The notes: generated from the sequence alone by a model not told the origin. DNA of 64,000 bases from Chlamydiota bacterium (GCA_022601335.1 JAJACV010000025.1:1-64000), one strand, 5' to 3'; positions 9,441 through 60,233 are shown, counted from the stretch's first letter. Made by a program: numbers and translations.

Positions 9441-9496
9441 ATCTTAAAAGAAATACTTTAGATCTCAAATAAATACAATAACTAAGTCGTTTTTTG

Positions 9497-14776: not shown

Positions 14777-14884
14777 TCGGGCTCCTAAAAATATTTTTTT
14801 ATATGATCTGAGATCATTTTCAACTACTTTTGTTAATTTTTAATAAAGATTCAGGACAAGCGTCTAATTATAAATATCTTTAAA

Positions 14885-14925
14885 AAAAACGTATTTTTAT
14901 CAAATCTTAACAATACTATAATAGG
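14885..14925 (+). promoter_or_regulatory. Possible sigma70-like -10 element (TATAAT at 14917-14922) upstream of the 14960 ORF, in an AT-rich divergent intergenic region
   Basis: A TATAAT hexamer lies 38 nt upstream of the ATG. The -35 is weak. This is pattern-based only. Confidence 0.15.
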
Positions 14926-14959
14926 CTTTAGTGAATAAAACTCCAAGCAGGATTTTTTA

Positions 14960-16525
14960 ATGCCAGACAATATTGATTCATCTATTTTCTCATCAGCTTA
15001 TCAGCAGGTTGAACGCGCTTTACATAAAGGTGTAGAAGCGATTCAAACGGACCGCATCTATTTTGCCGCCCCGATTTTAGTATCTGGATTTACAGCCTAC
15101 AGAGCCTGCAAGCACCTCTCTACAGCTCTAATGGGACAGGACTCTATAGAGTATAGAAAAAAGTTGATTGACGACGCTTTCAACGAAAACAATATTTCAA
15201 CTTTAAAGAGATCTCACCTTTTAGCCACTTCATTTTTTGGTTCTATTTCCTTTTCGGGTCGACTGAATGAGCTTGGTAGAGGGTTGGGATATTTGACAGC
15301 CTCTACTTTAGTTATGTATGCTCTACATAGTTACACTATGGACACATCAGCAGATACCGCTAAAGCTGACTCTATGGCTCCTGAGGCTGAAAAGGAAATT
15401 TTTCCAAAGCAACATAACCATGATATTACGTCTAGTGGACTCAAAATTTATGGAAAGCACAAAAAATATATTGACACAGGCCTCCACAGCCCACACACAC
15501 CTAATCTCTCTTATCCAGCACAACAATCGGTAAAACTAGCTGACCAAATTTTAATTGATCAGGAAACCCCAGCTACCACTTTATTTCAACAGACGAGGTC
15601 TGCTCTCTGCTCAGTTGCTTCTCCTTTTCTCAATACAACAAAGCCCTGCTACCCTTCTCCTAAGACGACAGAGACGATGAATTCTAAAGAAATAGCAGCT
15701 GTTTGCCACTCTACAAAAGAAGCCCTCATTCAAAACCATCCTGTTGACTATTATGAAAAAATTGCAAAAACTTCTAAGTTTGTTTGTGATTGGACATGGG
15801 GGGCACTTCCGGGACGCTCTCAGAGTGGAGATTGCCAAGGTCTTGAGAACAACCTCTATAATAAAGACAGTAATGAACTCTCACATCGTTTAAACGAGCT
15901 TGATCAACTTTGTGAAGTGGTTAACGAGCGATCTATTTTACAAGGCCGAGCCAATTATATTGACTCAGACCCTGATAAACTTACAGCTTACACAACGCTT
16001 TACCAGAAACTGATTTCTTCAGCAAATGCATACTCTTGGACAATTTACAAAAGTGTTGATAGATTAGGAGAACCTCATAGAAAATTCTTGGAGTTTTCAA
16101 AAAACTTCCCTCTTTCTTCTAAAGAAACAAACATTGAGACGGTAAAAAACTATCAAAACGTTCTAAACGCTTTAATTCCAGTAAATTCCAAAGATTTTAA
16201 CTCAGAAAATCTACCCATTTTTAGAGAAGCTGCGGCAAACTTTTTTGGTATTTCTCCAGGTTTCACTCAAGGAGAATTCAATACAGCTTATAGAAAGTTT
16301 CAAAAGAGCCACCATGCAGATAATTCAGCTGGAGGAGACTTAAACGAGGCGCTTTACGGCATTGCGGGTTCTTTAAAGGGTCTTTTTGGAAAGAGTGAAG
16401 GATACTCTCAAATAACAGGCTCCTCTCTAGGTCAGTCTATCTATTCTATTCCGACACCTTACAAGGCTATCGAAGGCATCTGGAATAGTTTCTCTGACTG
16501 GTGGAGTGCCCCTTTACAGACTTAA
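14960..16525 (+). CDS. Hypothetical protein with a C-terminal J-domain-like segment (HPD replaced by HAD)
   Basis: C-terminal FFGISPGFTQGEFNTAYRKFQKSHHADNSAGGDLNEA aligns with the DnaJ J-domain consensus (Y.ILGV...A...EI..AYRKLA.KYHPD.N). The rest has no family assignment. Confidence 0.4.
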   Translation: MPDNIDSSIFSSAYQQVERALHKGVEAIQTDRIYFAAPILVSGFTAYRACKHLSTALMGQDSIEYRKKLIDDAFNENNISTLKRSHLLATSFFGSISFSGRLNELGRGLGYLTASTLVMYALHSYTMDTSADTAKADSMAPEAEKEIFPKQHNHDITSSGLKIYGKHKKYIDTGLHSPHTPNLSYPAQQSVKLADQILIDQETPATTLFQQTRSALCSVASPFLNTTKPCYPSPKTTETMNSKEIAAVCHSTKEALIQNHPVDYYEKIAKTSKFVCDWTWGALPGRSQSGDCQGLENNLYNKDSNELSHRLNELDQLCEVVNERSILQGRANYIDSDPDKLTAYTTLYQKLISSANAYSWTIYKSVDRLGEPHRKFLEFSKNFPLSSKETNIETVKNYQNVLNALIPVNSKDFNSENLPIFREAAANFFGISPGFTQGEFNTAYRKFQKSHHADNSAGGDLNEALYGIAGSLKGLFGKSEGYSQITGSSLGQSIYSIPTPYKAIEGIWNSFSDWWSAPLQT

Positions 16526-17833
16526 AGTCGCTAAAGACTTTCGAATGTGGACTTGGCTGTCTAGAAGATCATAAATTTGCTTTGGTGTATGCTTTTCACA
16601 AAACTTCTGAAGGCTGCCACTTTTCTTAATAATAAAATCGACCTCTACAAGTGAAGCTAAAAGCTCTATCAAAGCTTCTTCTTCCAGATCTTTTTTCAAG
16701 TAAATAACAAGCTTAGCTTGAGGGTTTTCTTTTTTTATTTTTTTAAGCTGCCCAAATAAGTAGGGATTTAGCCCCTCTTCTAAAGAGAGATTAATAAGTA
16801 CAAAATCCTCATAATCCAAAATAAATTGAATAATCTTCAAATACTTTTCGCTAAAAACTTTGTTATCTAAATGTCTATTAAGAATAAGTTCTGCGAGTGT
16901 TTTAATCGTAATCTGAGCGCACCCTAAGTGTTCAATCACTTCTCCTGCAGCAAGGTTGCAAAGCATGACCGCTTGATCTAAAGAAATATTATTTGCAATG
17001 GAATGAGTTAAGACGGCAAGCACGGTATCTCCAGCACCAGTTACATCGACAACTTCTCGAACTTTTACTGGATATTCCTTAGCTTCTTGGCGTGTAAATA
17101 AAGCAATGCCCTTACTTGATTGCGTTACCATAATGTTTGGAATTTTACTTGTTTGGTATAAAGTATTTGCTATAACTTCTAAATTAGTCTCTTCATCATG
17201 ACCACTTGCTATTACAGCTTCTTGAAAATTCGGTTTTATTAAATAAGCCCCTTTGTATTTAGTAAAATCGTTTCCTTTAGGATCAACAACAACGGGTATA
17301 TCAAGCTCCTTGGCAGTTTTGAGTAACGCTTGAAGTAAGTTCCTAGTTAAGAAACCTTTTGCATAATCAGAGACTGCAATCGTCAAAACATCCTTTAGAA
17401 TTTTCTTTAGATCTGCAATTATTTTTTGTTCTAGAGAGCTTGTTATTTCTTCCTTTTCTTCGAAGTCGATACGGACAATTTGTTGACTGCCTGCCATAAT
17501 TCTATTTTTAATAGGAGTCTGGTAACCTTTTTGAATATAGAGAGAAGAGGTATCAATTTTTTCAGAGTTTAATTTTTCTAAGAGATCTTCTTTAGCACTA
17601 TCATTTCCTAGCCGCCCTAGAACCGATACTTTAGCTCCAAGCGATACCAGATTAAGAGCTACATTACCCGCTCCACCGGGTAATTTATTAATTTGCTTAG
17701 CATTGACAACCATCACGGGAGCTTCAGGAGAAACTCTTTTGACAGAACCTATTGTGTAGGTATCGAGCATGAAATCGCCCACTACAAGTATGCGCCCTTT
17801 AATGGGTTTGCTAAAAAGAGAAGATAAACTCAT
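16514..17833 (-). CDS. hldE: D-glycero-beta-D-manno-heptose-7-phosphate kinase (HldE/RfaE domain I only) with an unrelated ~120-aa C-terminal extension
   Basis: ILVVGDFMLDTY..PEAPV...PGGAGNVALNL and DVTGAGDT match the ribokinase-like RfaE domain I. The C-terminus lacks cytidylyltransferase motifs. Confidence 0.7.
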   Translation of the reverse strand: MSLSSLFSKPIKGRILVVGDFMLDTYTIGSVKRVSPEAPVMVVNAKQINKLPGGAGNVALNLVSLGAKVSVLGRLGNDSAKEDLLEKLNSEKIDTSSLYIQKGYQTPIKNRIMAGSQQIVRIDFEEKEEITSSLEQKIIADLKKILKDVLTIAVSDYAKGFLTRNLLQALLKTAKELDIPVVVDPKGNDFTKYKGAYLIKPNFQEAVIASGHDEETNLEVIANTLYQTSKIPNIMVTQSSKGIALFTRQEAKEYPVKVREVVDVTGAGDTVLAVLTHSIANNISLDQAVMLCNLAAGEVIEHLGCAQITIKTLAELILNRHLDNKVFSEKYLKIIQFILDYEDFVLINLSLEEGLNPYLFGQLKKIKKENPQAKLVIYLKKDLEEEALIELLASLVEVDFIIKKSGSLQKFCEKHTPKQIYDLLDSQVHIRKSLATLSL

Positions 17834-17835
17834 TG

Positions 17836-18825
17836 TTAATAAATTCTATTGGTCGTGATGTAATTGTTAATATAGTCTGAAATCGCTTCATGAATAGGGG
17901 TAGGATTAAAGTACTGCAATGTTTTTTTAAGTTTATCCATGGAAGCTTTTGTGTAGTTTTGATATTTCGCATTCAAATCTTCTGGCATCTCTCTATATTG
18001 AATATTGGGAGGTGCTCCAATCGCGCTAAACATACCCTTTGCCACATTATTCCACGTGTTTGCTTCTCCACTGCCTACATTGAAGATTCCATAAATATCT
18101 TTTTTCAGTATATCCACGACTAGAGAGGCCGCGTCTTTAACATAGATAAAGTCTCTACACTGGTCTCCATCTTTGAAATTCTGGGGGTCATTGGATTTAA
18201 AAAGCTTAATTAATCCTTCCTTTTTAACGAAAGGAAAGAGGTTATAGATAACCGATGCCATCCGCCCCTTATGATGTTCATTGGGCCCATATACATTAAA
18301 AAACTTAAGGCCCGTCATTTGATTAAGTACCCCTTGGTTTTTAGCCCATAAATCAAAAAGATGTTTAGAAAAGCCATAAGGATTCATTGGCTGCAATTCT
18401 TCAAGGGTGTCATGATTATCGTCAAAACCTCTAGATCCATCGCCATAGGTTGCAGCTGAAGAGGCATAAATAAATCTAATATCATTCTTTAGAGCAAACT
18501 CCGCCAGATTGAGAGTATACCTGTAATTATTCTCCATGAGATAATCAACGTTGGTCTCAACAGTGCTTGAGCAAGCACCCATATGAATAATAGCTTCTAT
18601 TTCGGAGGCTCTATCCGAAACATCGAGCCATGTCATGAGATTTTTTTTATCGATGTACTCAAGGAACTTTTTATTCGATAGATTTCTCCACTTATCAGAG
18701 GATCCTAATTGATCAACCACAACGACATTGCTCATTCCTAGTTCGTTGAGTAAACGAAGAATACACGATCCTATGAATCCAGCGCCTCCTGTGAGAATAA
18801 TTAATTTGTCGTCATAGAGTTTCAT
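17836..18825 (-). CDS. hldD: ADP-L-glycero-D-manno-heptose 6-epimerase
   Basis: TGGAGFIGS, GACSST, YASSAATYG and FNVYGP..HKG.MASV motifs give a near-collinear match to HldD/RfaD. Confidence 0.85.
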   Translation of the reverse strand: MKLYDDKLIILTGGAGFIGSCILRLLNELGMSNVVVVDQLGSSDKWRNLSNKKFLEYIDKKNLMTWLDVSDRASEIEAIIHMGACSSTVETNVDYLMENNYRYTLNLAEFALKNDIRFIYASSAATYGDGSRGFDDNHDTLEELQPMNPYGFSKHLFDLWAKNQGVLNQMTGLKFFNVYGPNEHHKGRMASVIYNLFPFVKKEGLIKLFKSNDPQNFKDGDQCRDFIYVKDAASLVVDILKKDIYGIFNVGSGEANTWNNVAKGMFSAIGAPPNIQYREMPEDLNAKYQNYTKASMDKLKKTLQYFNPTPIHEAISDYINNYITTNRIY

Positions 18826-23010: not shown

Positions 23011-23082
23011 TTGGGGTGGTAGGATTCGAACCTACGGTACACGGTACCAAAAACCGTTGCCTTACCACTTGGCTACACCCCA
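23011..23082 (-). tRNA. tRNA-Gln (anticodon UUG)
   Basis: A manual cloverleaf fold gives a 7-bp acceptor stem (U1-A72), a D arm GCC/GGC, an anticodon stem ACGGU/ACCGU with loop UUUUGGU (anticodon UUG) and a T arm GUAGG-UUCGAAU-CCUAC. Discriminator A; CCA not encoded. Confidence 0.8.
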
Positions 23083-27717: not shown

Positions 27718-29787
27718 ATGCTCAAACTTCCTGAATTTACGACAGATCCCAAAACATATCTTAGTGCCAAGAAAGAATTTCAGGGCCCACTATGTTCCTT
27801 TAAGGCTCGTTGTCCACTGAATTCTTCAGTGCATCATCATCATAAATTTGAAGAAAGTCTTATTCATGAGATTATGACTCTACCTCATACTCAAACGAAA
27901 AAATTTACTGAACATATAGAAGAGAATTGCCTTTCTATCAAAAATATAATAACACATTACAAGAAGGATCGCGATTTTTCAAAGATGAAAGAAAAATCGA
28001 ACGACCTAAATACTTACTATGAATTAGTTGAAACTTTAATAAAAGAATTCAACCCTGATCTTAATAGCTCACATACAATAGACGATAAAGAAACTTCAAT
28101 TATTACTGAAATTTCAAGTGATTATAAAGGAGACCAATCAACTTATTTTAAAATAGTTGATTTACTAACCAGTAATAAAGCAGATATAAACAAGACTAAT
28201 TCAATTAGACAAACAGCTCTTCATCAAGTAACTCACAACTGGGGTACCAATAAAGAGGTGAATTATTTACTTGAGCTCAATGCTGATCCTAACATCGCAG
28301 ATTTCCTAGAAACCACTCCTCTTGACAATGCCCTAGCAAAACAAGATTCTGAAATGGTGAACACTCTACTTAAATTCAACGCCGAACCGGGGACCTCTTC
28401 TATACCGGGGACCTCTTCTATAAAGGAGTCAAAGAAAAAAAATGCGGAACGTCTTACTAAGATTGTACATAGCGGCACATCTGAAGAACTAGAAACGCTA
28501 CTTAAATCCAATGTCGATCCGAACTACAAAACTACATATGGCTACTCCCCTCTTCATCACGCTGCCATACGAGGAAATCCTAAGGGCATACAACTTTTAC
28601 TCAATGCGAATGCCGATCCAGAAGCTACATACATGAGTGAAGTAACTCCTTATGACCTAGTTCAGGTTTATGGAGATGAAAAGGCTAAAAATTTGATACC
28701 TAAACCAACCAAAACAAAAACCATACTTCCAAAAAAGATAAGAAATATTGATGAAAATCTTCCAACACAAGCAGAAGACATTAATAAATTGAGAGAAGTA
28801 GAGGATACATGTCTAGAGCCTTTCTGCGAGAAGGTTCATACATATCAACGAAATGTTTTTCACGACATCCTTTATCTAGCAAATCAGGAAAATCCTCCTA
28901 GTGAAAAAATAATCTATAATTCAATCAAATCTCTAATTAAGAATAAAGCTGATGTAAATACAGCCTTAGAGTCTAAAGACTCGAATAAATTCCATCCCCT
29001 TTTTCTAGCAACACACATTTCGATGAGAAATAAGCCATTATCCACACGATTAGTTAAACTCTTGCTTGCTAATAATGCTGATATGAACAAAGGCCCTGGA
29101 TCCGAGCTCGTTGAAGTTGCTACCACACATGAAAACAGCGAACTTTTAGAATTGCTCCTTAAAAACGACCCCCGTTTAATAAACACAACTGATAAAGACA
29201 GCAACACTCTTCTTCAACTGTCTACTCTTAACAAAAAGAGTGAGACTCTAAAAGTCCTTCTTAGCAATAAGCCCTATTTAGAGCGTCCAAAGCCAGATGG
29301 CAGAACCCCTCTTCATTTAACAGCTAAGGTGGGAACAGCTGCAAACCTAAAACTTCTGCTTGAAGCTAAAGCCAGCCCAATAGCTATAGATAAAGACCTA
29401 ATGACTCCCCTTCACTACGCTGCTCGACGAGGAACACATTTAGGCGTACAACTTTTACTCAATGCGAATGCCGATCCAGAAGCCAAAGATATAAATGGAA
29501 CAACCCCTTTTCAACTAGCTAATAGACATGGAACTGAAGAGACCCAAGCCCTTATGAAGAGCTTCAAAAAAAATCCTAACTCCTTGTCTTTTGGAAAGAT
29601 AACAAGAACTTTTGTTTCTTATTCTTTATTTGCTTTAGCTGTCTCTTTAGCATATCAATCCTACTTCTTGGGCGATGATACAGACACGCAATGCTCTGAG
29701 TATCCTCCCGAAAGTGATTTACTAAGAGGGTGGTTTGGTGGAACCCTAGGCACATCTTATGAAGATTGTATTTCAAATTTAAATTAA
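27718..29787 (+). CDS. Ankyrin-repeat protein with a C-terminal transmembrane segment
   Basis: Multiple ANK repeats (TALH.A...G....V..LL..GADPN-type; repeated GIQLLLNANADPEA and GVQLLLNANADPEA). A C-terminal hydrophobic helix reads FVSYSLFALAVSLAY. Confidence 0.8.
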   Translation: MLKLPEFTTDPKTYLSAKKEFQGPLCSFKARCPLNSSVHHHHKFEESLIHEIMTLPHTQTKKFTEHIEENCLSIKNIITHYKKDRDFSKMKEKSNDLNTYYELVETLIKEFNPDLNSSHTIDDKETSIITEISSDYKGDQSTYFKIVDLLTSNKADINKTNSIRQTALHQVTHNWGTNKEVNYLLELNADPNIADFLETTPLDNALAKQDSEMVNTLLKFNAEPGTSSIPGTSSIKESKKKNAERLTKIVHSGTSEELETLLKSNVDPNYKTTYGYSPLHHAAIRGNPKGIQLLLNANADPEATYMSEVTPYDLVQVYGDEKAKNLIPKPTKTKTILPKKIRNIDENLPTQAEDINKLREVEDTCLEPFCEKVHTYQRNVFHDILYLANQENPPSEKIIYNSIKSLIKNKADVNTALESKDSNKFHPLFLATHISMRNKPLSTRLVKLLLANNADMNKGPGSELVEVATTHENSELLELLLKNDPRLINTTDKDSNTLLQLSTLNKKSETLKVLLSNKPYLERPKPDGRTPLHLTAKVGTAANLKLLLEAKASPIAIDKDLMTPLHYAARRGTHLGVQLLLNANADPEAKDINGTTPFQLANRHGTEETQALMKSFKKNPNSLSFGKITRTFVSYSLFALAVSLAYQSYFLGDDTDTQCSEYPPESDLLRGWFGGTLGTSYEDCISNLN
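28387..28422 (+). repeat. Perfect 18-bp tandem duplication (ccggggacctcttctata x2) encoding PGTSSI-PGTSSI inside the ankyrin gene
   Basis: Two identical adjacent copies are seen directly in the sequence; the duplication is in frame. Confidence 0.85.
28540..28625 (+). repeat. About 85-nt intragenic direct repeat, copy 1 (copy 2 at 29407..29483, ~85% identity), with an identical 35-nt core caacttttactcaatgcgaatgccgatccagaagc
   Basis: The 35-mer is identical at 28591-28625 and 29449-29483. Flanking ANK-repeat codons are similar. Confidence 0.8.
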
Positions 29788-32027: not shown

Positions 32028-33413
32028 ATGACAACATTTGAGACTAGAGTGAAAGCTTTTACAAACTTTTATTCGAGGGCAGCTCAGGAATATGAACCTT
32101 CTTGTGCCGAAGATATTTCCAAGAAAGAATTTCAAACACTTGCTGCCTATGCATCTCGCCTGACTGAACATGCCCTTAGTGATCAACCGTTGACAAAGCT
32201 TACAGCTGAGAGTTTAGACGACATTAAAGCCCCTTTTGACAAAACCTTTCAATTATTAAAAGATCCCTTCAGATCTAGAAAAAAAGATCTAGAGCAAATT
32301 ATTTATGAAATTTATGGAACCACTCTTGTTATCGAGGACAAAAAGAAAGATCCTCTTAACAATAAAGGACCTTTTTGCAACAACTGCAAGATATTCGACG
32401 TGCAAGCTGAGCGTTTACGAGAATCTCTTTTAGTCGACAATAATGGCAATCCCTCAAAATACATGCCTATCAGAAAGCTTCTTTCAGATAAAGAAAGCCT
32501 CTACTCACTTGTTGCTCTTAGATATCTAATAGAGCAAAGAGAGGACAGCGAAGCCACTGAAACTTTAATTGCTGCTAGTTCCTCAGGCAACCTGGCCGCT
32601 ATAGAGCTAGCTCTTAAAATGAACGCTGATATTAATGGAACTACTTCTAATCAAAAGCTTCCTCCCTTAGCTACCGCTGCCCAATCACAATCCTTAGCTG
32701 CAATTGAAAGACTCTTGCAAGTAGATGAAATTGATGTTAACTTAAACTTTCCTCTTTGCCGAGCCACAGCAAATATTGATCCCTGCCCTAAAACAATAAA
32801 GTTATTAGCCCAAGATTCGAGAACCAAGTTGGAGCTCCAATACAAGAGAAATCCTTTGACTTCCGAAATCAAAGAAACCGCTCTCTCGTTTGCCACACAC
32901 CCCTTTATTAAAGATAAAACAATCGATCCAACAGAATCTCTGCGCGTTCTCATAGATCTTGATCGTATAGATCTGAATATGACTAATTCTGATGGAAGCA
33001 CAGCGCTTCTAAAAGCCATACATCAGAACAATCCCGAAGCTGCGGAGCTTTTATGCAAAGCGAAGTCCTTTAATGTAAATTTAGCTGATCATGGAGGAAT
33101 CTCTCCCTTATTCTTAGCTCTTCATCATGACAGCAGTAAATTCCTAGGCTATCTTGTCAGTAGAGAGGACTTAGATATCAATAGACTGGATCTCGATCGA
33201 CATTTTCACTTTTCGGATGACATTAGATCCAAAAAGTCTGCTTTAATGCTGGCTATTGAAATGCGTAAAGAAGAACATGCTCACTTTATTCTTTCTCATC
33301 CAAAATTAGATGTAAACTATCGAACAGAAGAGAAGTCGACTTTAGATTTTGCAGATAGCAGACCTAAGACATCTGAGTTAATACAGCAACACCCAAATTT
33401 CAAAAGTATTTAG
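32028..33413 (+). CDS. Ankyrin-repeat protein
   Basis: Repeated TALL.A...N..A...LL motifs (e.g. GSTALLKAIHQNNPEAAELLCKA, SPLFLALHHDSSKFLGYLV). Confidence 0.75.
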   Translation: MTTFETRVKAFTNFYSRAAQEYEPSCAEDISKKEFQTLAAYASRLTEHALSDQPLTKLTAESLDDIKAPFDKTFQLLKDPFRSRKKDLEQIIYEIYGTTLVIEDKKKDPLNNKGPFCNNCKIFDVQAERLRESLLVDNNGNPSKYMPIRKLLSDKESLYSLVALRYLIEQREDSEATETLIAASSSGNLAAIELALKMNADINGTTSNQKLPPLATAAQSQSLAAIERLLQVDEIDVNLNFPLCRATANIDPCPKTIKLLAQDSRTKLELQYKRNPLTSEIKETALSFATHPFIKDKTIDPTESLRVLIDLDRIDLNMTNSDGSTALLKAIHQNNPEAAELLCKAKSFNVNLADHGGISPLFLALHHDSSKFLGYLVSREDLDINRLDLDRHFHFSDDIRSKKSALMLAIEMRKEEHAHFILSHPKLDVNYRTEEKSTLDFADSRPKTSELIQQHPNFKSI

Positions 33414-33449: not shown

Positions 33450-34034
33450 ATGTTAATATTAGCTTCATCTTCCCCAAGACGAAAAGAAATTTTAGATTTC
33501 TTTTCTATTCCATACAAGCAAGCCAACCCTCCGTTTGATGAGGATACTTTACAATTTCAGGGAGATCCTAAAGCGCTTGTCAAAGATCTTTCGAAAGGGA
33601 AAGCGCTTAGCTTAGTCAAAAGATTTCCAAAAGATATTATCTTAGCTGCAGACACACTCGTTTATTATGAAGGAAGCATTTTAGGTAAGCCTAAAAGCGT
33701 TGAAGACGCTATTAAAATGCTAGAGATGCTTCAAGGTAAATGGCACCAGGTTTTTACTGGAATCACTGTTTTAAATCCGAGCCATCAAATTACAGATGTA
33801 GAAGAGAGCCGCATTTTATTTAAAGATTGCTCTGAATCTGAAATTAAAAAATATGTCTCTAGTATCCACTGTTTAGATAAAGCCGGTTCCTACGCTATAC
33901 AAGGAGCTGGAAATATCCTAATTGAGAAAATGGAGGGGTGCTTTTATAACACTTGCGGATTACCTATAAATGCGTTAGAAAGGTCTTTAAAAGTTTTAGG
34001 CCTCAGTTTATGGAATTATCTAAAGTCACCTTAA
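33450..34034 (+). CDS. maf: Maf-like nucleoside triphosphate pyrophosphatase
   Basis: LILASSSPRRKEIL N-terminus, DT.V motif and YAIQG; 194 aa. Confidence 0.85.
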   Translation: MLILASSSPRRKEILDFFSIPYKQANPPFDEDTLQFQGDPKALVKDLSKGKALSLVKRFPKDIILAADTLVYYEGSILGKPKSVEDAIKMLEMLQGKWHQVFTGITVLNPSHQITDVEESRILFKDCSESEIKKYVSSIHCLDKAGSYAIQGAGNILIEKMEGCFYNTCGLPINALERSLKVLGLSLWNYLKSP

Positions 34035-35764
34035 TTGCTCTAGCTAGCTGCGCATTATGTACAAGTTGCGCGCTCAAACAACAAGAAATGAGTGAAGCTG
34101 ATAGTAGACTGCTTCAAAAAAGTCTTGAAACCTCGATGACTCCCACTTCTCTTGAGACAGAAGATACTCTTTCATTTTACTCAGCACTCCCACGTAGTAC
34201 AAAAGAAGCTTTAACGTCTTATAACCAAATGTACCAATACGGCGGTATGCATGATTACGATTATCTGCAAAAACTTGGCATCCGTTTTCTAGAAGAATCG
34301 TTAAGTGAATTCGACCCAGAATCGCAGCTACTAAGTATTTATGGAGCCTCCATTGCCAAAAACAACAAACTTCTTCCTATTTTAGAAAAAGCCCTTTCAA
34401 GTGAGCATCCTCAAGTGCAGATAGCCGCTATACGCGCTTTATCTGACTATCACGACGATGACGCAGATCGCATCCTTGTCAAAGGGATGCAGTCTAATTA
34501 CCTCGAAGTTTGTTTTGAAACAGCTTTTGTGCTCGCCCTCAATAAACATCCTGAGGCGATGGGCTATATCGAATCTCTTATGAATAAAGTTCCGGACCCA
34601 TTTCATTATTTATTTCCCACTCTTTATGCTATTTTAGACACGCCTCAGTCATCAAAGTCGTTAAAGAAGTTTTTCCAAAGCCCTGACCAAACTGTGCGCG
34701 TCGAAGCTATTTTATCTGCGGCTCGAGTCAGCCGCTATGATTTACTCCCTTCTATCCGATCTTTATCTCTACACCATGAAATAGCTGAGCAAGAAGCGTG
34801 CGCTTTTACTTTAGGACACCTACAGGATGAAGCTTCCGTATCAACCCTTGAAGAACTCATGAAAAGCCCTTCCGAGTACGTAGCGCTCTCGGCTATGCTT
34901 GCTCTTTATAAGCTAGGAAGATCTGAAGTTATTTCTGACATAGAATCCCTAGCCACACAAGGCAACATTTTTGCTATTCAAATCCTTCGAGATTGCCACT
35001 GCGACGAAAAAATTCTAGAAGCTTTGGCCTATCACCCACAAGAACAAGTACGACTCAATGCGGGACTCGCTCTTCTAAAAAAGAAAAACCCACTATGCTT
35101 AACTGAAGTGCGTCAAATTTTAGTTCCCAATCAATCTCAACTATTTGTCGTTCCCGCTCAATCTCCTGGTAAAGCGCTGGCTGCAAAAAAATGGACTTTA
35201 GCCTCTCCGAGTACATTGCGATCCAACCCTTTTATTAAAGAAATTTCCAACCAAGTAAGACGAGAAATTTTAACAGAGTGTTTAGAACTACCTGAAAGCC
35301 TGTTCTTAACCTTAGCTTCTGAAATTGTAGACTCTGGAGACAATGATTTAATTCCAGATGTCATAGCCCTGGTACAATCTTTAAAAACCTCCAATGCCAT
35401 TGCTCTTTTAAAAGAGTGGCAAAGAAAGGTCGGTCATCCGTATGTCAGAGCATGGAGCAACTTAGCTCTTTTCAATTTAGATCAAAACGGTCCTTGGAAG
35501 GAAAACATTATCTCTTGGGTTAAAAAACAAAAATATCACCCTATGATACGCCTCAAGCCTATTGTCCCTTGGAGTAAAAAATCTTCGTCTTCAAAGTTTG
35601 AACTTACAGCAGAAGAAAAATCTCAATTACTTATTCAATCCTACTTAGCAATAGCCCTTCGACAAGAAGAGGGTGGCATTGAGATGATTCTTTCCCATTT
35701 AGATGCCCAAAACTCTAAAAACAAGTATGCGCTTGCAGGGATTCTTATCAAAGCAACCGAGTAA
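34010..35764 (+). CDS. HEAT-repeat (PBS-lyase-like) protein with an N-terminal lipoprotein-type signal
   Basis: The signal/lipobox-like stretch LIALASCALCTSC follows the ATG at 34010. Repeated HEAT-like units recur as VQIAAIRALS, VRVEAILSAA and VRLNAGLALL. The gene overlaps the maf 3' end by 25 nt. Confidence 0.6.
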   Translation: MELSKVTLIALASCALCTSCALKQQEMSEADSRLLQKSLETSMTPTSLETEDTLSFYSALPRSTKEALTSYNQMYQYGGMHDYDYLQKLGIRFLEESLSEFDPESQLLSIYGASIAKNNKLLPILEKALSSEHPQVQIAAIRALSDYHDDDADRILVKGMQSNYLEVCFETAFVLALNKHPEAMGYIESLMNKVPDPFHYLFPTLYAILDTPQSSKSLKKFFQSPDQTVRVEAILSAARVSRYDLLPSIRSLSLHHEIAEQEACAFTLGHLQDEASVSTLEELMKSPSEYVALSAMLALYKLGRSEVISDIESLATQGNIFAIQILRDCHCDEKILEALAYHPQEQVRLNAGLALLKKKNPLCLTEVRQILVPNQSQLFVVPAQSPGKALAAKKWTLASPSTLRSNPFIKEISNQVRREILTECLELPESLFLTLASEIVDSGDNDLIPDVIALVQSLKTSNAIALLKEWQRKVGHPYVRAWSNLALFNLDQNGPWKENIISWVKKQKYHPMIRLKPIVPWSKKSSSSKFELTAEEKSQLLIQSYLAIALRQEEGGIEMILSHLDAQNSKNKYALAGILIKATE

Positions 35765-44852: not shown

Positions 44853-45529
44853 TGCTAAAAGCCACACACCTTAAAAAATCTTTTTTTGCACCCACGCATT
44901 GTGACATTCTAAAAGACATTAATCTTGAAGTACACCCGTCTGAAACAGTTGCCATTATGGGCACTTCGGGAGTTGGGAAAAGCACTCTACTTCATATATT
45001 AGGAACTTTAGAGACATGTGATAGCGGATTATTAGAAATAGCTCACCAGCCTCTTCCCAAGAATCTCAGTAAGCTGCGTAATCGACATATAGGTTTTATC
45101 TTTCAGTCTTTTTTCCTTTTAGACCATTTAACTGTGCTAGAAAATATTCTTCTACCTGCTAAAATTGCTCGATTTTCTATTTCTACAAACTCAAAAGCTT
45201 ACCAAAGAGCTCTTAATCTTTTAAAGAAGCTTCATCTAATGGATAGAAAAGACCATTTAGCAAAAACATTGTCAGGAGGTGAAAAACAACGCACTTGCAT
45301 AGCTAGAGCACTTTCAAATAATCCCAATCTGATCTTTGCCGATGAGCCTACAGGAAACTTAGATCAAAAAACATCCAGAGATATTCAAAAACTACTTTTA
45401 AGTACTGTTAAAGAAGAAGGGAAATCTCTCATTCTTGCAACTCATGACGCGGACTTTGCCAAAAAGTGCGACAAAGTTTACCTACTTAAAGACGGAAAAT
45501 TGTGGAATCTAGATCTTTCATTTAAGTAG
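44852..45529 (+). CDS. ABC transporter ATP-binding protein (LolD-like)
   Basis: Walker A GTSGVGKST, signature LSGGEKQR and Walker B LIFADEPTGNLD; 225 aa. Confidence 0.75.
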   Translation: MLKATHLKKSFFAPTHCDILKDINLEVHPSETVAIMGTSGVGKSTLLHILGTLETCDSGLLEIAHQPLPKNLSKLRNRHIGFIFQSFFLLDHLTVLENILLPAKIARFSISTNSKAYQRALNLLKKLHLMDRKDHLAKTLSGGEKQRTCIARALSNNPNLIFADEPTGNLDQKTSRDIQKLLLSTVKEEGKSLILATHDADFAKKCDKVYLLKDGKLWNLDLSFK

Positions 45530-46940
45530 AGCGCTCTTTTAACGCTATTGTTTCAAAGCAGAGCTCTAACGAATGCGGTTTACTATCAGGCAATTTTGGT
45601 ATAATTTGCGCATACTCTTTAAAGTTTTCTCTAAGACGATCGGCAGCAATTTTTTGCAGATCAGACGCCGAAAGCTCCTTTAAATCTTCAAGACCCGAAA
45701 TAACTGATGAAAACGACTGCTTAATTTCCTCATAAGCACTCCCCTGCAAGTCATCCGAAGTTAAGCTGTGTGTTTGATGAAACAAATCTTCCACATGCCC
45801 TTTAGCTCCGTACAAAGCTCCTATCACAAAGGAAAGTCTCCAAAACCGCTTTTGGTAATCGTCACCATAAAAATGAATGATTTTTTCTCGAGCAATTTCT
45901 TTTTTTTCTAGAGCTTTAATACAAGCTGCAGCTGTGACAGAGCTTAGCATAGCTGATGTCATCCCTGTCGATAAAAGAGGATCTATAAAAACCGCTGCAT
46001 CCCCCGCTAAAAAATAATTATCCCCGGCCCATTTAGTGGTGCGGTAACTCCAGTCTTGCGTTTGTTGAACACTTGATACTAAGTAAGCTTTTTCAAGAAG
46101 AGACATAAATATTTGAGATTGTTCCAGCGATTCTTTATACAATACTTTTTTATCTTTCTTTTTTTTCTCTTCATTATAAAATTTTTGAGAAAGAACAACT
46201 CCTACACTAAATGTTTTGTCATGAAGAGGAATACCCCAAATCCAGCCATTTGGAATAGAGCTTAGAACAATAGGATTTTCAAGATCTTTGGTATAACCTT
46301 GTATTCCATGAAAGTCTTTTAAAGTGTGTGAAGGTTTTGCTTTTAACCAGTAACCCCAAAGGGCTACATTTTGAAAGGCATTTAAAGGTTTTTGAGAATC
46401 TAAATAACGCCTCGCTAAAATAGCCGCACGTCCACTAGCATCTATCAGGTAGTCACAGACTACCCTTTTAACGTCGCCCTTATGAAGCACCGAAACAGAT
46501 TCAACACAATCTCCATTAAACTCAATGCTTTCTACTTTTGTCTCTTCATACACTCTCACTCCGCACTCTCGAGCTCTTGTCAAAAGAAGGTGATCAAATT
46601 CAGAGCGAATAACATGATAAGTATATTGCCCGCTTTCTCCCCAATTAATTAACCATCGCTCATTCCAGTCAAATAAAACACCGCCTTTTCTCTTACATCC
46701 CAAAGAGATAACTCTTTCTTCTAAATCGAGTTGTTGCAGTATCCAAGGAAGTGAGAGGATTCCCGATTCGCCTATATGGTATCTAGGATGACAATCTTTC
46801 TCGTAAAGAGAAACCTCAAAACCCGCTTTAGCAAGAAGTATAGCAGCAGTAGATCCGGCAGGACCGCCGCCAATAATAACAATTTTTTTTGGTTCTGACA
46901 TCTTAGTTAAACAAAATTTATCAAAATATTTTCTAAACAA
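45522..46940 (-). CDS. FAD-dependent oxidoreductase of the flavin-dependent (tryptophan-type) halogenase family
   Basis: GxGxxG reads IVIIGGGPAGSTAA. The halogenase-family motifs GWIWGIP (WxWxIP) and FIDPLLSTG (Fx.Px.Sx.G) are both present. Confidence 0.55.
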   Translation of the reverse strand: MFRKYFDKFCLTKMSEPKKIVIIGGGPAGSTAAILLAKAGFEVSLYEKDCHPRYHIGESGILSLPWILQQLDLEERVISLGCKRKGGVLFDWNERWLINWGESGQYTYHVIRSEFDHLLLTRARECGVRVYEETKVESIEFNGDCVESVSVLHKGDVKRVVCDYLIDASGRAAILARRYLDSQKPLNAFQNVALWGYWLKAKPSHTLKDFHGIQGYTKDLENPIVLSSIPNGWIWGIPLHDKTFSVGVVLSQKFYNEEKKKKDKKVLYKESLEQSQIFMSLLEKAYLVSSVQQTQDWSYRTTKWAGDNYFLAGDAAVFIDPLLSTGMTSAMLSSVTAAACIKALEKKEIAREKIIHFYGDDYQKRFWRLSFVIGALYGAKGHVEDLFHQTHSLTSDDLQGSAYEEIKQSFSSVISGLEDLKELSASDLQKIAADRLRENFKEYAQIIPKLPDSKPHSLELCFETIALKERST

Positions 46941-47722
46941 ATAGAAAGCTTAATAGAGCGCTCGAATCCCAAACGTGTTTTTTCCAGACTCTTTTGAAAC
47001 TGCTTATAACTTAAAGGAAGTGTCTGCTGTAAACTTAAAAACCATTTTTCCACTTGTAAAAACAGATTTTTAGCCTCCTCATCAAATTGCATTTGCTCTT
47101 CAAAAGACTTCTCTTTTTTTGAAAAAATTTCCTTTTCTAAAGAGTCTAAGATAGAACTGCAGGTTTTGTTCAATTCATGATAGGAAAATTTAGGCCAACT
47201 TTCAAGAAATTGAGATAGCATGACCTGATGTTTTTTTTCAGACTCAACAAGCTCTTCTTTCTGAAAAATCACCTTTTGAAATCGTGAGACAAGAGTGGGC
47301 AACAGCGCATCGAGAGAGCCAACCATTAAAATAAAGTAAGAAGATTTCACAGGCTCTTCAATTGTTTTCAAAAGAGCATTTGCAGCAGCCTCTTGCATAC
47401 GCTCTGCACCCTTTAAAACAAAAAACTGAGAAGGAGATTCATGAGGATAAAGTTGACTTTGACTAGAGAGTCCTCTTATTTGCTCGATAGTATAAACGCC
47501 TGATTTAGAAGACGGAGTTAGAAGAGAAAAATCAGGGTGGTTACCTGATAACATTTTTTCTAATCCTTCCTCTGAAGCACCTTGCATTTGAAGCACTTTT
47601 TGAGCAAATAGCTTAGCGCAATCAAGCATCTTCTCTCTATTTGATCCTATAAACAGAAGCGCCTGAGGAATTTTTTCTCCCTGCAGTATTTGTTCTAAAA
47701 ATTTTTCGTGCTTTTGCATCAT
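46907..47722 (-). CDS. holB: DNA polymerase III delta-prime subunit
   Basis: AAA+-like N-terminal segment (ALLFIG) and clamp-loader delta-prime architecture; 271 aa. Confidence 0.7.
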   Translation of the reverse strand: MMQKHEKFLEQILQGEKIPQALLFIGSNREKMLDCAKLFAQKVLQMQGASEEGLEKMLSGNHPDFSLLTPSSKSGVYTIEQIRGLSSQSQLYPHESPSQFFVLKGAERMQEAAANALLKTIEEPVKSSYFILMVGSLDALLPTLVSRFQKVIFQKEELVESEKKHQVMLSQFLESWPKFSYHELNKTCSSILDSLEKEIFSKKEKSFEEQMQFDEEAKNLFLQVEKWFLSLQQTLPLSYKQFQKSLEKTRLGFERSIKLSICLENILINFV

Positions 47723-47727
47723 GGCAT

Positions 47728-48354
47728 CTACTTTCTTAATATAGCTCGTACAGGGCTTGCTTCAAATCCTTTGAGTTTCAAAGGCAAGGCAACCAGCTCA
47801 TAAACCCCTTTTGGGACCTCTTTCAAGTAAAGGCATTCTAGAACAGCCATTTTATATTTACTAGCACATTTCTGACTTAAAATACTTGAACAGTCTTTAT
47901 ATAGGTCTATTCCAGGTGTGTCAATCCCTACTAAAATGACTCCCTTTTCGTGAAGATACTCAATAGCATTTGGATCCAACGCAGCATAGTCTTCAGGGAA
48001 GGGATTTTGTTGATTTGCCGTATTTGTTTTAATAAGAACTCGAGGTGTTTGAAAATGATTCGGCAGTTGATCTGGTGTCACTTTGCTCAAAGGATTTGCT
48101 TGAATCTCAATCACTTCACAAGGTCCGATAAAGTAATCCAACCCCAGATCAACGACATCCAAACCTTCCGTCTCTGTCATTAAGGGACTGTTGACATGAG
48201 CACCTAAGTGGCTGGTAGATTTAAAAGCTGAGAGATTTACCCCATGCCCTTTTTCAATTTCAAGCTTAGGAAGCTTTTTTAAGGGCATATCATTTGGCCA
48301 CACACAAAATTTTTCGTCAATTTGTGGTGATATATCAAACAAAGCTACATTCAT
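47728..48354 (-). CDS. Cyclase-family protein (putative arylformamidase / kynurenine formamidase-like)
   Basis: The HLGAHVNSP segment fits the HxGTHxDxP metal-binding motif of cyclase/KynB proteins, with D replaced by N. The 208-aa size is appropriate. Confidence 0.5.
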   Translation of the reverse strand: MNVALFDISPQIDEKFCVWPNDMPLKKLPKLEIEKGHGVNLSAFKSTSHLGAHVNSPLMTETEGLDVVDLGLDYFIGPCEVIEIQANPLSKVTPDQLPNHFQTPRVLIKTNTANQQNPFPEDYAALDPNAIEYLHEKGVILVGIDTPGIDLYKDCSSILSQKCASKYKMAVLECLYLKEVPKGVYELVALPLKLKGFEASPVRAILRK

Positions 48355-48423
48355 AATAAAATCGGATTTTTTGAGTATGATACAAAAAATCCGATTTTAT
48401 CTAACTGTTTTAAGACATCTATT

Positions 48424-49422
48424 TCAATTTTTACCGTAAAAAGCGGCTAATGACTTATCATTATCTGATGCTTGAAAAAAGGTTTTTCCTCCTTGCTGCT
48501 CGAGATATTCAATGAGTGCCGTATTTCTCGGGTGCAGTGTTTTAACAACCGTTAACGGAGAGGCTATGGGATCTAACTGTATTTCACTGTGACCGGCTCT
48601 AACAACTCCGATATTCCCCCCTCCACTACAGGGAGCTTCTGCCCAAGCACTCCAATCACTATTGCTCCAATAATCACTTTCATAAATAGTTCGTTGAGCA
48701 AGCTTCATTTCAGATTGATTCACTTTATTCACGTCATAGCCCTTTTCTTCTAAGAGAAAGCGGACACAATCTAAATTACCTGCTGCACAGGCTAGGTGAA
48801 GCAAGTTCTTATTAAAAATAAAGAGATCTTGATCTAAAAAGATCTCTGGATGTTTCTCTTGAAGATATTGAGCGCCTTCAAACCAACCGTCTTTAAAAGA
48901 ATTATATATCATATAAACAGAGAAATAATAAGCGGTATTTTTATCATTATCTTCAAAATCATTCCACCCCAAACCATAGTCATAAGCAACTATATCTTTT
49001 ATATCTTCAATCAGATCTTTTTTGTAATGACTGAAAAGCAGCAGCATCTCCAAATTTTTACTTTTAGAGACTAAACTAAAAGGACTAATATGCCCGACTT
49101 TATCATCCCATGCAGAAGTAAATAAAGTTTCTGGAGTGTTCTTTAGAAGATGATCGGCAATATCTACAAATCCCTTTTTAACAGCAAAGTGAAGAGGAAT
49201 ATAATTTTTTTTATTGCCAACACTTGGATCTATTCCATAAGAAATAAGTAATTTAACAGCTTCAAAATTATTTTTTTTACAAGCTAAGTGCAGGGCATTA
49301 TCCCCTGCATTATTTGAATAATTAGGATCTATTCCTAAAGATTTAAGCTTTATTTCAGCTTCATTAGGTTTCAAAAATGTATAAGAATCTGAATAACTTT
49401 GATAACGTGAGTTTATTTCCAT
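48424..49422 (-). CDS. Ankyrin-repeat protein
   Basis: GDNALHLACKKNNFEAVKLLISYGIDPSV...IPLHFAVKKGFVDIADHLL and NLLHLACAAGNLDCVRFLL are clear ANK units. Confidence 0.7.
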   Translation of the reverse strand: MEINSRYQSYSDSYTFLKPNEAEIKLKSLGIDPNYSNNAGDNALHLACKKNNFEAVKLLISYGIDPSVGNKKNYIPLHFAVKKGFVDIADHLLKNTPETLFTSAWDDKVGHISPFSLVSKSKNLEMLLLFSHYKKDLIEDIKDIVAYDYGLGWNDFEDNDKNTAYYFSVYMIYNSFKDGWFEGAQYLQEKHPEIFLDQDLFIFNKNLLHLACAAGNLDCVRFLLEEKGYDVNKVNQSEMKLAQRTIYESDYWSNSDWSAWAEAPCSGGGNIGVVRAGHSEIQLDPIASPLTVVKTLHPRNTALIEYLEQQGGKTFFQASDNDKSLAAFYGKN

Positions 49423-49449
49423 AGTAACAACCTTAGAAGTTAATTGAGA

Positions 49450-49992
49450 TCAGGATAAAATTACATTCCAAGCATTGTTTATAGTACTCATGGCAATATA
49501 ATGAGCTGTGCCTGCCAGAAGAGCACTATAAGCTACGGGCTTTGGAAATAGGCCGCAAGCATAAAGAATTATGGAACCACCTACATATTTAGTCGAAATG
49601 ACCTCAAATACTGCTGCCGGCACCTTTGATTCGGAAAGTGTATGATAGAGAGAGGTCGTTCCCTCTACCAATCCATTAGCTGTTTCCTGAAGATAAGGCA
49701 GCGCTTGTGAAAAAACAGCTTTTATAGGGTCTAAGCAATCTTGAATATTTAGAGGTCGGTCAGGTCTTGCAAAACCAACTAAATCACATGCAGAATGATA
49801 ATTTTCATAGGATGAACAAGTAGAGATCGTTGACTCTAAAGCTTTATTTGCAAATGCTACGCTCCCAGCCAGAGCACCCACAGTCAGTAACGTGTACCCT
49901 AAAGTTTTATAAGGGTTCTCCTTGGCGTACTGGATCCCTTCATTTACATTTTTATAAACTAAATTTGATAAACCACTAACTAAACTAGTCAT
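49450..49992 (-). CDS. Hypothetical small membrane protein, paralog A (tandem duplicate of 50513..50914)
   Basis: The N-terminal ~80 aa are about 75% identical to paralog B, including the TM helix TLGYTLLTVGALAGSVAFA. Nucleotide identity over that region is about 85-90%. Confidence 0.4.
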   Translation of the reverse strand: MTSLVSGLSNLVYKNVNEGIQYAKENPYKTLGYTLLTVGALAGSVAFANKALESTISTCSSYENYHSACDLVGFARPDRPLNIQDCLDPIKAVFSQALPYLQETANGLVEGTTSLYHTLSESKVPAAVFEVISTKYVGGSIILYACGLFPKPVAYSALLAGTAHYIAMSTINNAWNVILS

Positions 49993-50129
49993 TTTAAAAC
50001 CTTTGTAAAATAAATCAATATAACCAATATTAATATATAAACATTAAGATTTTATAAACTAAAACCTGTTTAAAATAACTACGACTCCAATTCATAACCC
50101 TGAAGTTAAACAGAGCTTCTTTACCCAAA

Positions 50130-50450
50130 AAATTTGCTAAAGTATGAAGAAAAAGCTTCACCTATACATTCTTCGAAGGATTTCTCTCCGCTGCTTCCAA
50201 ATCCCGAACTAACAGAAAGGTCTGTTGCCCAGGGATAATCAGAACATTGCATATATGTGTATAATCCCAGCGATCCAAAGAGAACAGGAAGCCCAAATCT
50301 ACCAGCTAGGCTGCGAATCATTTGAAAGTGACCTGCTAGTAAGAGCAGAGCGACCTCTACATGCCCCCTGTCTTAAAGCCGCATATAAAGCTCGTCCTCT
50401 ATCAGGATAAGACCTTCGCAATCTTGGTCACAGAGCTGCCAAGCGAAGTC
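50130..50450 (-). pseudogene. Decayed partial duplicate of the thymidylate kinase (tmk) 3' region
   Basis: Collinear nucleotide similarity to tmk: 50396-50450 matches 51305-51360 (tggtcacagag.tgc...aagtccatt), and 50165-50215 matches 51100-51150 (cttcgaa...tttctct...gctgc...caatc). Only short broken ORFs remain. Confidence 0.45.
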
Positions 50451-50512
50451 CATTACTTAATAACTATTTTTTAAAGTATGCATCATGAATGCTGCCATTG
50501 TTGCAGACTCCA

Positions 50513-50914
50513 TCAATAAAAAGCCTCGAGCAAGACTCCATCAATAAAAAGCACTGGGACTGCGTATGTCAGAACTTTTAGATATGTCGAAACGGCTACC
50601 TTTGTGGTTGCAAATAATGCTGTCGCTGATAAGTTTAATATGGAAACTGCGTGATCAAAATAAGTTTTTGGATTTAATTTTTCGGGCCTTGAAAAACCGA
50701 CTAAATCACATGCAAAATGATAATTTTCATAGGATGAGCAAGTAGACATTGTTGATTCAAAAACTTTATTTGCAACTGCTACGCTCCCAGCCACAGCACC
50801 CACAGTCAGCAACGTATAGCCTAAAGTTTTAGCAGGGTTCTCTTTGGCGTCCTGGACCGCTTCATTTACGTCTTTATAAACTGAATATGTGAAATTACTA
50901 ATGGAACTAGTCAT
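50513..50914 (-). CDS. Hypothetical small membrane protein, paralog B (possibly 3'-truncated)
   Basis: Paralog of 49450..49992. Its 3' end contains a direct 19-nt repeat (gactccatcaataaaaagc x2, around 50496-50545) and the ORF is 47 aa shorter than paralog A. Confidence 0.4.
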   Translation of the reverse strand: MTSSISNFTYSVYKDVNEAVQDAKENPAKTLGYTLLTVGAVAGSVAVANKVFESTMSTCSSYENYHFACDLVGFSRPEKLNPKTYFDHAVSILNLSATALFATTKVAVSTYLKVLTYAVPVLFIDGVLLEAFY

Positions 50915-59540: not shown

Positions 59541-60077
59541 TTAAATTTTTAAGATGTTTTGGCCAGGAGAGGGAGGAGGCTGTCCTCCAGGGCCACCCGA
59601 TGGAGGTAATCCTCCAGGTCCTATTCCTCCAGTCCCAGGCCTAGGAATTTCGACTTCTTTGCCTTCCATGACAGCTTTAGCTATTTTACGCCATTTCTCA
59701 ACAGTCTCAACATAAAGCGGAGCAAAGCCTCTTAAAGCCTGCATACTCGCATGCTCCATATCTAAAACACAGTGCAATAAAATCAGTTCTTCTTTAACAG
59801 CCACACCGACTCCACCGCCGGCCATCTGGCCTCCTAACATAGATCCTTCGAGTAACTTCTCATACAGCCTTAAACGAATTTTAGAATCTTTAGGCAGCCC
59901 ATCAATAATTGGTGAATAGATATAAAGTCTTTTTGAGTTTGGCTCATAAGTCATATGCATTGAAAATTCATCATCAATACCCAAAATACATGTATTATTT
60001 TCATCAAACTCTAGACCCTCAAGACCTAGCTCTTTTCCAAATTCGACCAAGTTTTCTTTGGCATTTTCTAACGACAT
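59541..60077 (-). CDS. Type III secretion class I chaperone-like protein (SycE/CesT/Scc1-like) with a Gly/Pro-rich C-terminal tail
   Basis: The start at 60077 (MSLENAK) is preceded by an AAGGAAGGG SD. LVEFGKELGLEGLEFDENNTCILGIDDEF...L is collinear with chlamydial Scc1 LLTELGTQINSPLTPDSNNACIVRFGYNN. The protein is acidic, about 150 aa plus a tail. Confidence 0.5.
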   Translation of the reverse strand: MSLENAKENLVEFGKELGLEGLEFDENNTCILGIDDEFSMHMTYEPNSKRLYIYSPIIDGLPKDSKIRLRLYEKLLEGSMLGGQMAGGGVGVAVKEELILLHCVLDMEHASMQALRGFAPLYVETVEKWRKIAKAVMEGKEVEIPRPGTGGIGPGGLPPSGGPGGQPPPSPGQNILKI

Positions 60078-60233
60078 AATTCCCTTCCTTAGTGGCTCAA
60101 TAAATTTAGTGGGTGGATGGTAACAGAGGATTTGATATCTCTGCAATCAATTTTTGAATTTAGACTGATAGATCTAGTTAAATACGGTCCCCTATCTTAA
60201 ACATCAGGCACTCAGTTAAGGCGCAGGGAGGAG

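Follow-up and report, generated by a model that had tools for sequence, protein, structure and literature searches.

The holB locus and its conservation

We analysed a 64,000-nucleotide (nt) stretch of DNA, hereafter the window, from a Chlamydiota bacterium (GCA_022601335.1, JAJACV010000025.1:1-64000) whose coding records are deposited under a Chlamydiae/Chlamydiota bacterium metagenome-assembled genome (MAG). On its minus strand, holB, which encodes the delta-prime subunit of DNA polymerase III, is preceded by a gene derived from the kynurenine formamidase KynB and followed by a gene of the flavin-dependent halogenase family (Table 1). The three open reading frames (ORFs) are co-oriented (47728-48354, 208 amino acids; 46907-47722, 271; 45522-46940, 472), and Pfam assigns them to Cyclase (PF04199), DNA_pol3_delta2 (PF13177) and Trp_halogenase/FAD_binding_3, as a preliminary description of the window had proposed. 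The 34-nt overlap between holB and the FAD gene given there is, however, an artefact of the longest ORF, which begins at TTG 46940. After the holB stop codon TAA (46907-46909) come CTAAG and then the ATG at 46901, which most likely starts a protein of 459 residues, since the deposited record (MCH9633836.1), the start called in an independent assembly and the N-termini of all close homologues agree on it, and an exact look-up with the 472-residue form found no match. Both junctions of the trio are therefore 5-nt gaps, the spacer between the KynB-like gene and holB being ATGCC and not the 6 nt first reported. The window HolB is divergent, since its best NCBIfam match, TIGR00678 (holB, 121 bits), is under the cutoff of 181; it contains the DNA_pol3_delta2 domain, and its position after gyrB-gyrA-tmk is conserved in the window and its relatives.

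Table 1. Positions of the three genes, their diagnostic motifs and residues, and the adjoining hairpin, counted from the first letter of the window
Feature	Position	Strand	Details
Flavin-dependent halogenase-family gene	45522..46901	-	459 aa from ATG 46901; MCH9633836.1, deposited as 'Kynurenine 3-monooxygenase'
holB, DNA polymerase III delta-prime	46907..47722	-	271 aa; PF13177 114 bits
KynB-derived cyclase-family gene, degenerate catalytic centre	47728..48354	-	208 aa; MCH9633838.1, deposited as 'Kynurenine formamidase'
Halogenase GxGxxG (GGGPAG), residues 11-16	46854..46871	-	dinucleotide-binding motif; invariant in 109 homologues
Halogenase Lys72 codon	46686..46688	-	equivalent to PrnA K79, RadH K74, CmlS K71; KRKGG at 46680-46694
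Halogenase WxWxIP (GWIWGIP), residues 219-225	46227..46247	-	W220, W222 and P225 invariant in 109 homologues
Halogenase Fx.Px.Sx.G (FIDPLLSTG), residues 305-313	45963..45989	-	Leu310 at the PrnA E346 position
KynB-like degenerate metal motif HLGAHVNSPLM	48178..48210	-	canonical HxGxHxDxPxH; Asn55 for bridging Asp56, Met59 for catalytic His60
KynB-like Gln161 codon	47872..47874	-	replaces KynB Zn ligand His161
BaKynB His50			window His49 (retained)
BaKynB His54			window His53 (retained)
BaKynB Asp56			window Asn55 (lost)
BaKynB His60			window Met59 (lost)
BaKynB His161			window Gln161 (lost)
BaKynB Glu173			window Glu173 (retained)
19-bp hairpin	48355..48401	-	ends at the base before the KynB-like ATG; 22 nt past the ankyrin gene stop

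The trio belongs to a longer backbone. Upstream on the same strand lie dciA, gyrB, gyrA and tmk (57059-51093), with a lineage-specific insert of about 2.7 kb, containing an ankyrin protein and small paralogous proteins, between tmk and the trio; downstream follow the convergent lolD, lolCE, rpmG, tsaD and pgl. Comparison contigs are referred to by locus labels such as L001, L058 being an independent assembly of the window's own locus. The halogenase gene lies 3' of holB, directly or with only a short-chain dehydrogenase (SDR) gene between them, in all ten chlamydial loci examined, so the co-occurrence with holB in related genomes that the preliminary description had proposed to look for is borne out. 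The complete order KynB-like-holB-halogenase is present in the window (and again in L058), L001, L051/L052, L053 and L055, that is, the KynB-like gene is found in five of the ten halogenase-bearing loci; L003 and L054 have holB-halogenase only, and L002, L004 and L005 have the SDR gene between holB and the halogenase and lack the KynB-like gene. Since the trio recurs in independent genomes, its arrangement is not a chance one. The operon-like spacing noted earlier is likewise confirmed and conserved, the junctions within the trio ranging from -11 to +5 nt across the five divergent trio genomes, and these tight junctions, the strongest available if indirect evidence, make it most likely that the trio is co-transcribed. 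The mean pairwise identity is 58.5% for the KynB-like protein, 51.7% for HolB, 67.2% for the halogenase and 68.2% for LolD.

The taxonomic range of the halogenase is narrow. A motif-based scan with one genome per species (185,579 species-representative genomes), in which diverged copies could be missed, retrieved it from five chlamydial genomes, all MAGs, and from no other chlamydial genome, in agreement with the earlier statement that it lies outside the chlamydial core. All non-chlamydial matches have at most 36% identity save L050, a 40-residue fragment from a Verrucomicrobiota MAG with 60% identity over residues 7-46. In a neighbour-joining tree, calculated without support values, the chlamydial halogenases form one long-branched clade in which the protein of the trio-bearing L055 is basal; this placement suggests that the trio is ancestral and that the KynB-like gene was lost later.

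Several smaller observations concern the same genes. The SDR genes (L002 2528-3445, L004 5106-6005 and L005 5106-6005) encode short-chain dehydrogenases (adh_short, 162 bits) with a hydrophobic, signal-peptide-like N-terminus. The genomes with the order holB-SDR-halogenase are exactly these three species, all without the KynB-like gene, and the SDR may be an alternative partner of the halogenase there. The halogenase gene (-) and the convergent lolD (+) overlap at their 3' ends by 8 nt in the window (45522-45529), leaving no intergenic room for terminators, and the same 8-nt overlap is seen in L053 and L055. In L052 (GCA_900162855.1, FUWD013243720.1) the halogenase is split into 265 and 188 residues, and gyrB, pepA, lolCE and pgl are also fragmented; because all of these genes are intact in the near-identical JGI contig L051, the splits are more likely assembly frameshifts than signs of pseudogenisation.

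A halogenase-family protein outside the tryptophan class

The motifs quoted in the preliminary description for the FAD enzyme, GGGPAG, GWIWGIP and FIDPLLSTG, are all in the sequence, and the alignment of 109 homologues shows GxGxxG, WxWxIP, Fx.Px.Sx.G and Lys72 to be invariant. Placement in the halogenase superfamily, also proposed earlier, is upheld in agreement by Pfam, NCBIfam, PDB sequence matches and Foldseek. Pfam gives Trp_halogenase (PF04820) 104 bits against a cutoff of 21, and FAD_binding_3 87 bits, while the best NCBIfam model is that of the CmlS halogenase (NF033113, 225 bits, model positions 3-356 of 570). The best sequence matches in the PDB are RadH, FasV (8zop) and CmlS, with E values of about 1e-49, followed by Mpy16, PltA, CndH, ChlB4 and Bmp2. 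An AlphaFold2 model of the 459-residue protein, built on the 109 homologues, reached a mean predicted local distance difference test score (pLDDT) of 84.9, and a Foldseek search of the PDB with it returned characterised phenol, pyrrole and polyketide halogenases at all of the top 14 ranks, with template modelling (TM) scores of 0.70-0.77. The peptidyl-tryptophan dihydroxylase QhpG ranked 47th, and tryptophan halogenases 43rd or lower.

The tryptophan type proposed in the preliminary description does not hold. Two of the motifs, WxWxIP and Fx.Px.Sx.G, had been taken there as hallmarks of tryptophan-type halogenases, but according to the literature all three define flavin-dependent halogenases generally. 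Of the two catalytic residues that were to be looked for, the Lys of PrnA (K79) is present as Lys72, which in the PDB alignments (chain numbering counted from them) pairs with RadH K74 and CmlS K71, and the Glu (E346) is not. With a peptide probe of the PrnA and RebH chains in the PDB, PrnA E346 and RebH E357 were mapped to the residue that immediately precedes Ser in the ESTG segment, where the window protein has Leu310. For PrnA and PyrH the alignment is confined to the Rossmann N-terminus, approximately residues 14-111, with E of about 1e-4. Based on its sequence and predicted fold, the FAD protein is a member of the flavin-dependent halogenase family in a non-tryptophan class, given that the catalytic Lys is present and the tryptophan-type Glu absent. 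It groups with the phenol, pyrrole and polyketide halogenases RadH, FasV, CmlS and PltA.

This placement is reflected in the comparison with characterised enzymes. RadH (8gu0), FasV (8zop) and CmlS (3i3l) have the same fold as the window halogenase (TM 0.74-0.77; 30-31% identity for RadH and FasV) and share GxGxxG, WxWxIP, Fx.Px.Sx.G and the catalytic Lys with it. K74, D325 and F328 are experimentally essential in RadH, and K72, D307 and L310 are their positional equivalents in the window protein; the FIDPLLSTG segment is identical in FasV. Unlike these three enzymes, the window halogenase is encoded in a chlamydial housekeeping operon, outside a biosynthetic cluster, and carries a distinct, clade-conserved and poorly modelled C-terminal region (residues ~370-459). 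With PrnA, RebH and PyrH it has in common the superfamily, the flavin module, the catalytic Lys and WxWxIP, but Leu replaces the Glu of PrnA and RebH, the Trp-binding module is unmatched and the protein is shorter by about 70 residues.

As a rule, flavin-dependent halogenases serve as tailoring enzymes and belong to secondary-metabolite clusters of free-living microbes. Scanning 22-64 kb of the window, we found no biosynthetic cluster, no polyketide synthase or nonribosomal peptide synthetase, no carrier protein and no flavin reductase, and the chlamydial halogenase is an orphan in this respect. A 37%-identical homologue in Amycolatopsis anabasis (VTHK01000015.1, L056), by comparison, is encoded inside a biosynthetic cluster (7525-18132) together with AMP-ligases, an aldehyde dehydrogenase, a DeoC-type aldolase, DHQS-II, an amidohydrolase, an arylamine N-acetyltransferase and a flavin reductase fused to an FAD monooxygenase. 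Judged from its Pfam content, this cluster resembles a 3-amino-4-hydroxybenzoate-type natural-product pathway and would fit a substrate class of phenols or arylamines for the halogenase family.

The KynB-like protein and its degenerate metal centre

The product of the upstream gene belongs to the cyclase/KynB superfamily, as described before, on the strength of its Pfam match (PF04199 Cyclase, 53 bits) and its PDB matches to KynB enzymes. The homology to bacterial KynB is full-length (PDB 4cob, E 1.4e-37 over residues 4-207), and for BaKynB (4cz1/4co9), PaKynB (4cob) and BcKynB (4cog) the E values run from 1e-37 to 1e-28, with proteins of the same length. The score against the KynB model TIGR03035, 175.2 bits, is below its cutoff of 223.05. 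Besides three of the metal-site residues, the window protein retains the equivalent of the substrate-contacting Trp20 and the C-terminal ASPVRA segment.

The metal centre itself is altered. In BaKynB a binuclear Zn site is formed by His50, His54, Asp56, His161 and Glu173, and His60 forms a hydrogen bond with the bridging hydroxide; among 336 KynB sequences His54, Asp56 and His60 are strictly conserved, and His50, His161 and Glu173 occur in 99.7% (PMC4243253). The HxGxHxxxP site reported earlier is literally present as HLGAHVNSP, but the full HxGxHxDxPxH motif and His161 are absent, and the functional KynB metal site that had been read from it is contradicted by the replacement of three of the six catalytic or ligand residues (Table 1); the preliminary description had itself named a missing functional metal site as grounds for giving up its linkage argument. 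We aligned 121 homologues, 6 chlamydial and 115 nearest non-chlamydial ones. In all six chlamydial sequences Asp56 is replaced (by N or V), as are His60 (by M or I) and His161 (by Q), whereas every one of the 115 non-chlamydial homologues keeps all six residues. The L055 ortholog is degraded further and keeps only His50, the other positions being C54, V56, M60, Q161 and K173.

Because Asp56, His60 and His161 are lost, the KynB-like protein cannot, as judged from its residues, be a canonical binuclear-zinc KynB amidase, and the amidase activity has presumably been lost with them. The gene is intact in six assemblies and its product is more conserved than HolB, which indicates that it is under purifying selection and not decaying. 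Most likely it encodes a non-catalytic ligand-binding or partner protein, or an enzyme of different chemistry, though it may also be unrelated cargo. Every degenerate KynB-like gene on a sufficiently long contig sits in the holB-halogenase unit. The possibility of a conserved cyclase-halogenase module outside Chlamydiae was considered and rejected, as tblastn with the KynB-like protein found no match in 45 non-chlamydial halogenase loci.

Interpretation and genomic setting

Taken together, these results lead us to consider it probable, with moderate confidence, that a phenol-type halogenase and a degenerate KynB homologue were inserted beside holB and packed tightly against it, the linkage being positional, with no role for either protein in tryptophan catabolism or replication. 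The conserved string dciA-gyrB-gyrA-tmk-holB would have gained two extra genes, packed against holB, in one clade of uncultured environmental Chlamydiota. By the mechanism of its family, the halogenase would be of the two-component type: FADH2 supplied by a reductase encoded elsewhere would react with O2, halide would attack the flavin hydroperoxide to give hypohalous acid, and the latter would reach Lys72 through a tunnel that the GWIWGIP and FIDPLLSTG segments line; Lys72 would direct electrophilic halogenation of an electron-rich aromatic substrate. The upstream gene would descend from a bacterial KynB and have since lost its catalytic His, the bridging Asp and one His ligand of Zn. The association with holB would reflect insertion into a compact, constitutively needed operon, and the gyrB-gyrA-tmk-holB string is more likely an insertion site than a sign of a functional tie to replication, the absence of which we infer. 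There is a parallel in mixed-function tmk-holB operons such as E. coli pabC-mltG-tmk-holB-ycfH, compact units in which holB shares its transcript with genes of unrelated function; here the passengers are instead a halogenase and a degenerate amidase homologue, neither of which is known as a holB neighbour.

Several observations weigh against this reading. The halogenase is far under the 900-bit cutoff of the CmlS equivalog model and lacks the C-terminal winged-helix domain of that model; residues 373-438, the only low-confidence part of the AlphaFold2 model, are poorly defined; and the searched literature contains no halogenated chlamydial metabolite. Five of the six chlamydial KynB-like proteins still have H50, H54 and E173, and a mononuclear metal site may remain. 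A terminator-like hairpin abuts the first ATG of the trio in the window, which bears on how the unit is transcribed in this genome. This hairpin has 18 Watson-Crick pairs and one G-U pair (dG -21.8 kcal/mol, z -5.85, none of 200 shuffles as stable) and, with its A-tract and U-tract, resembles an intrinsic terminator or a 5' boundary element; it leaves no space for a promoter or ribosome-binding site before the KynB-like start. It does not recur at this position in relatives: upstream of the orthologs nothing significant was found in L051, L001 and L055, and the strong hairpin of L053 is a different one, lying about 80 nt upstream. When 45300-48600 was scanned for promoter and terminator consensus sequences, the counts equalled shuffle expectation, so internal signals are neither supported nor opposed.

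An Rfam scan of the whole window returned a single tRNA (23011-23082) and no riboswitch or leader near the trio. At the 3' end of the KynB-like ORF, approximately 16 nt upstream of the holB ATG, there is a sigma-70-like match, TTGAAG-16-TATATT (47738-47765, -), that could serve as a promoter of holB's own; such matches occur in the region only at shuffle expectation.

The halogenating activity of the FAD enzyme is itself deduced from sequence, model and family mechanism, and the motifs do not prove it, because QhpG also keeps the WxW element. An unlikely alternative is a non-halogenating QhpG/LodB-like monooxygenase that hydroxylates a peptidyl residue or a small aromatic. QhpG (7ctq) has a halogenase-like fold that is structurally closest to CmlS, its NCBIfam model gives the window protein a sizeable sub-threshold match of 171 bits (E 4e-50), a further point against the halogenase assignment, and LodB and GoxB match as well; the missing flavin reductase and the lack of a halometabolite context in the scanned part would also fit. 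Yet the scores are under the curated cutoffs (QhpG 171 against 240, LodB 105 against 400), QhpG is found by sequence at only E 3e-6, far weaker than the true halogenases, and by structure at the low rank given above, neither the catalytic Lys nor the full Fx.Px.Sx.G motif varies, and no qhpADC, lodA or goxA partner lies in the scanned part of the window.

The KynB-like protein might be an active enzyme with a remodelled mononuclear metal site (His49, His53, Glu173, perhaps Asn55 and Gln161) that shares the aromatic substrate of the halogenase and, for example, removes a formyl or acyl group from an arylamine either before it is halogenated or afterwards. The conserved H50, H54 and E173, the conservation above HolB and the constant location in the holB-halogenase unit speak for it, as does the use of a single Mn in the same motif by related isatin hydrolases, as reported in PMC6117287. 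We regard it as rather improbable: the L055 ortholog keeps His50 only, the catalytic His60 is gone in all six proteins, half of the halogenase-bearing chlamydial loci do without the gene, and no cyclase-family neighbour occurs in the 45 non-chlamydial halogenase loci. A more speculative idea, to which we give a low probability, is that the dead KynB homologue was repurposed as an aromatic-ligand-binding partner of the orphan halogenase, for capture, delivery or sensing. If true, the pair would let host-dependent chlamydiae halogenate an arylamine or phenol derived from the host or the environment, and would constitute a two-protein halogenation module outside a biosynthetic cluster, fixed in a replication-gene operon.

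The preliminary description had held that both families act on tryptophan-derived substrates and had linked this to host tryptophan catabolism. Such a pairing of a tryptophan-type halogenase with a functional kynurenine formamidase, which the Pfam name 'Trp_halogenase', the KynB enzymes among the best PDB matches, the retained Trp20 and the deposited names with their similar kynurenine-pathway reading might suggest, is very improbable and largely refuted by the residue states: Leu stands for E346, the KynB residues D56, H60 and H161 are replaced, TIGR03035 is below cutoff, tryptophan halogenases and kynurenine 3-monooxygenase (KMO) match only the N-terminal Rossmann region (E 1e-4 to 1e-6), the former at structural rank 43 or lower, half of the halogenase-bearing chlamydial loci have no KynB-like gene, and the scanned 22-64 kb hold no TDO, kynureninase or other kynurenine-pathway gene. 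No evidence supports either the shared substrates or the host link.

The deposited name of the FAD protein, kynurenine 3-monooxygenase, was examined separately and rejected, as KMO chains match it only from the N-terminus to about residue 182 (E 1e-6 to 6e-4). The names of MCH9633836.1 and MCH9633838.1 are both misleading, and the KMO name has also been given to a related MAG protein, MCH9633140.1. Taken at face value, such names would introduce a false kynurenine-pathway capacity into metabolic reconstructions of these chlamydiae, a concern for research into tryptophan and the host interactions of Chlamydiae.

The halogenase represents a new clade in a known family, and the KynB-like protein a new, catalytically degenerate variant of another. 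The searched literature describes neither a chlamydial halogenase nor a chlamydial KynB, so this halogenase is the first chlamydial case there, intact, fixed beside an essential replication gene and as conserved as its housekeeping neighbours. Its conservation implies a physiological role for halogenation or related chemistry, none of which is described in that literature. With a clade-specific loss of its metal centre and a conservation above that of the adjacent essential gene, the KynB-like protein offers a tractable case of a pseudoenzyme or of neofunctionalisation.

The gap between tmk and the KynB-like gene or holB is a hot spot of lineage-specific, effector-like insertions (window 48424-50914, -; L053 3402-7844; L054 2768-6033). 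The window insert encodes an ankyrin-repeat protein and a pair of small paralogues, each with a hydrophobic segment (49450-49992 and 50513-50914), that of L053 two eukaryote-like C2H2 zinc-finger proteins and two proteins without a Pfam match, and that of L054 several small ORFs and an AIM24 gene. In L051 the KynB-like gene directly follows tmk, 111 nt apart. In the window as a whole there are genes for three proteins with ankyrin repeats, one with HEAT repeats and a type III secretion chaperone of the CesT family (together 27718-29787, 32028-33413, 48424-49422, 33953-35764 and 59541-60146), a gene content consistent with a host-associated chlamydial lifestyle.

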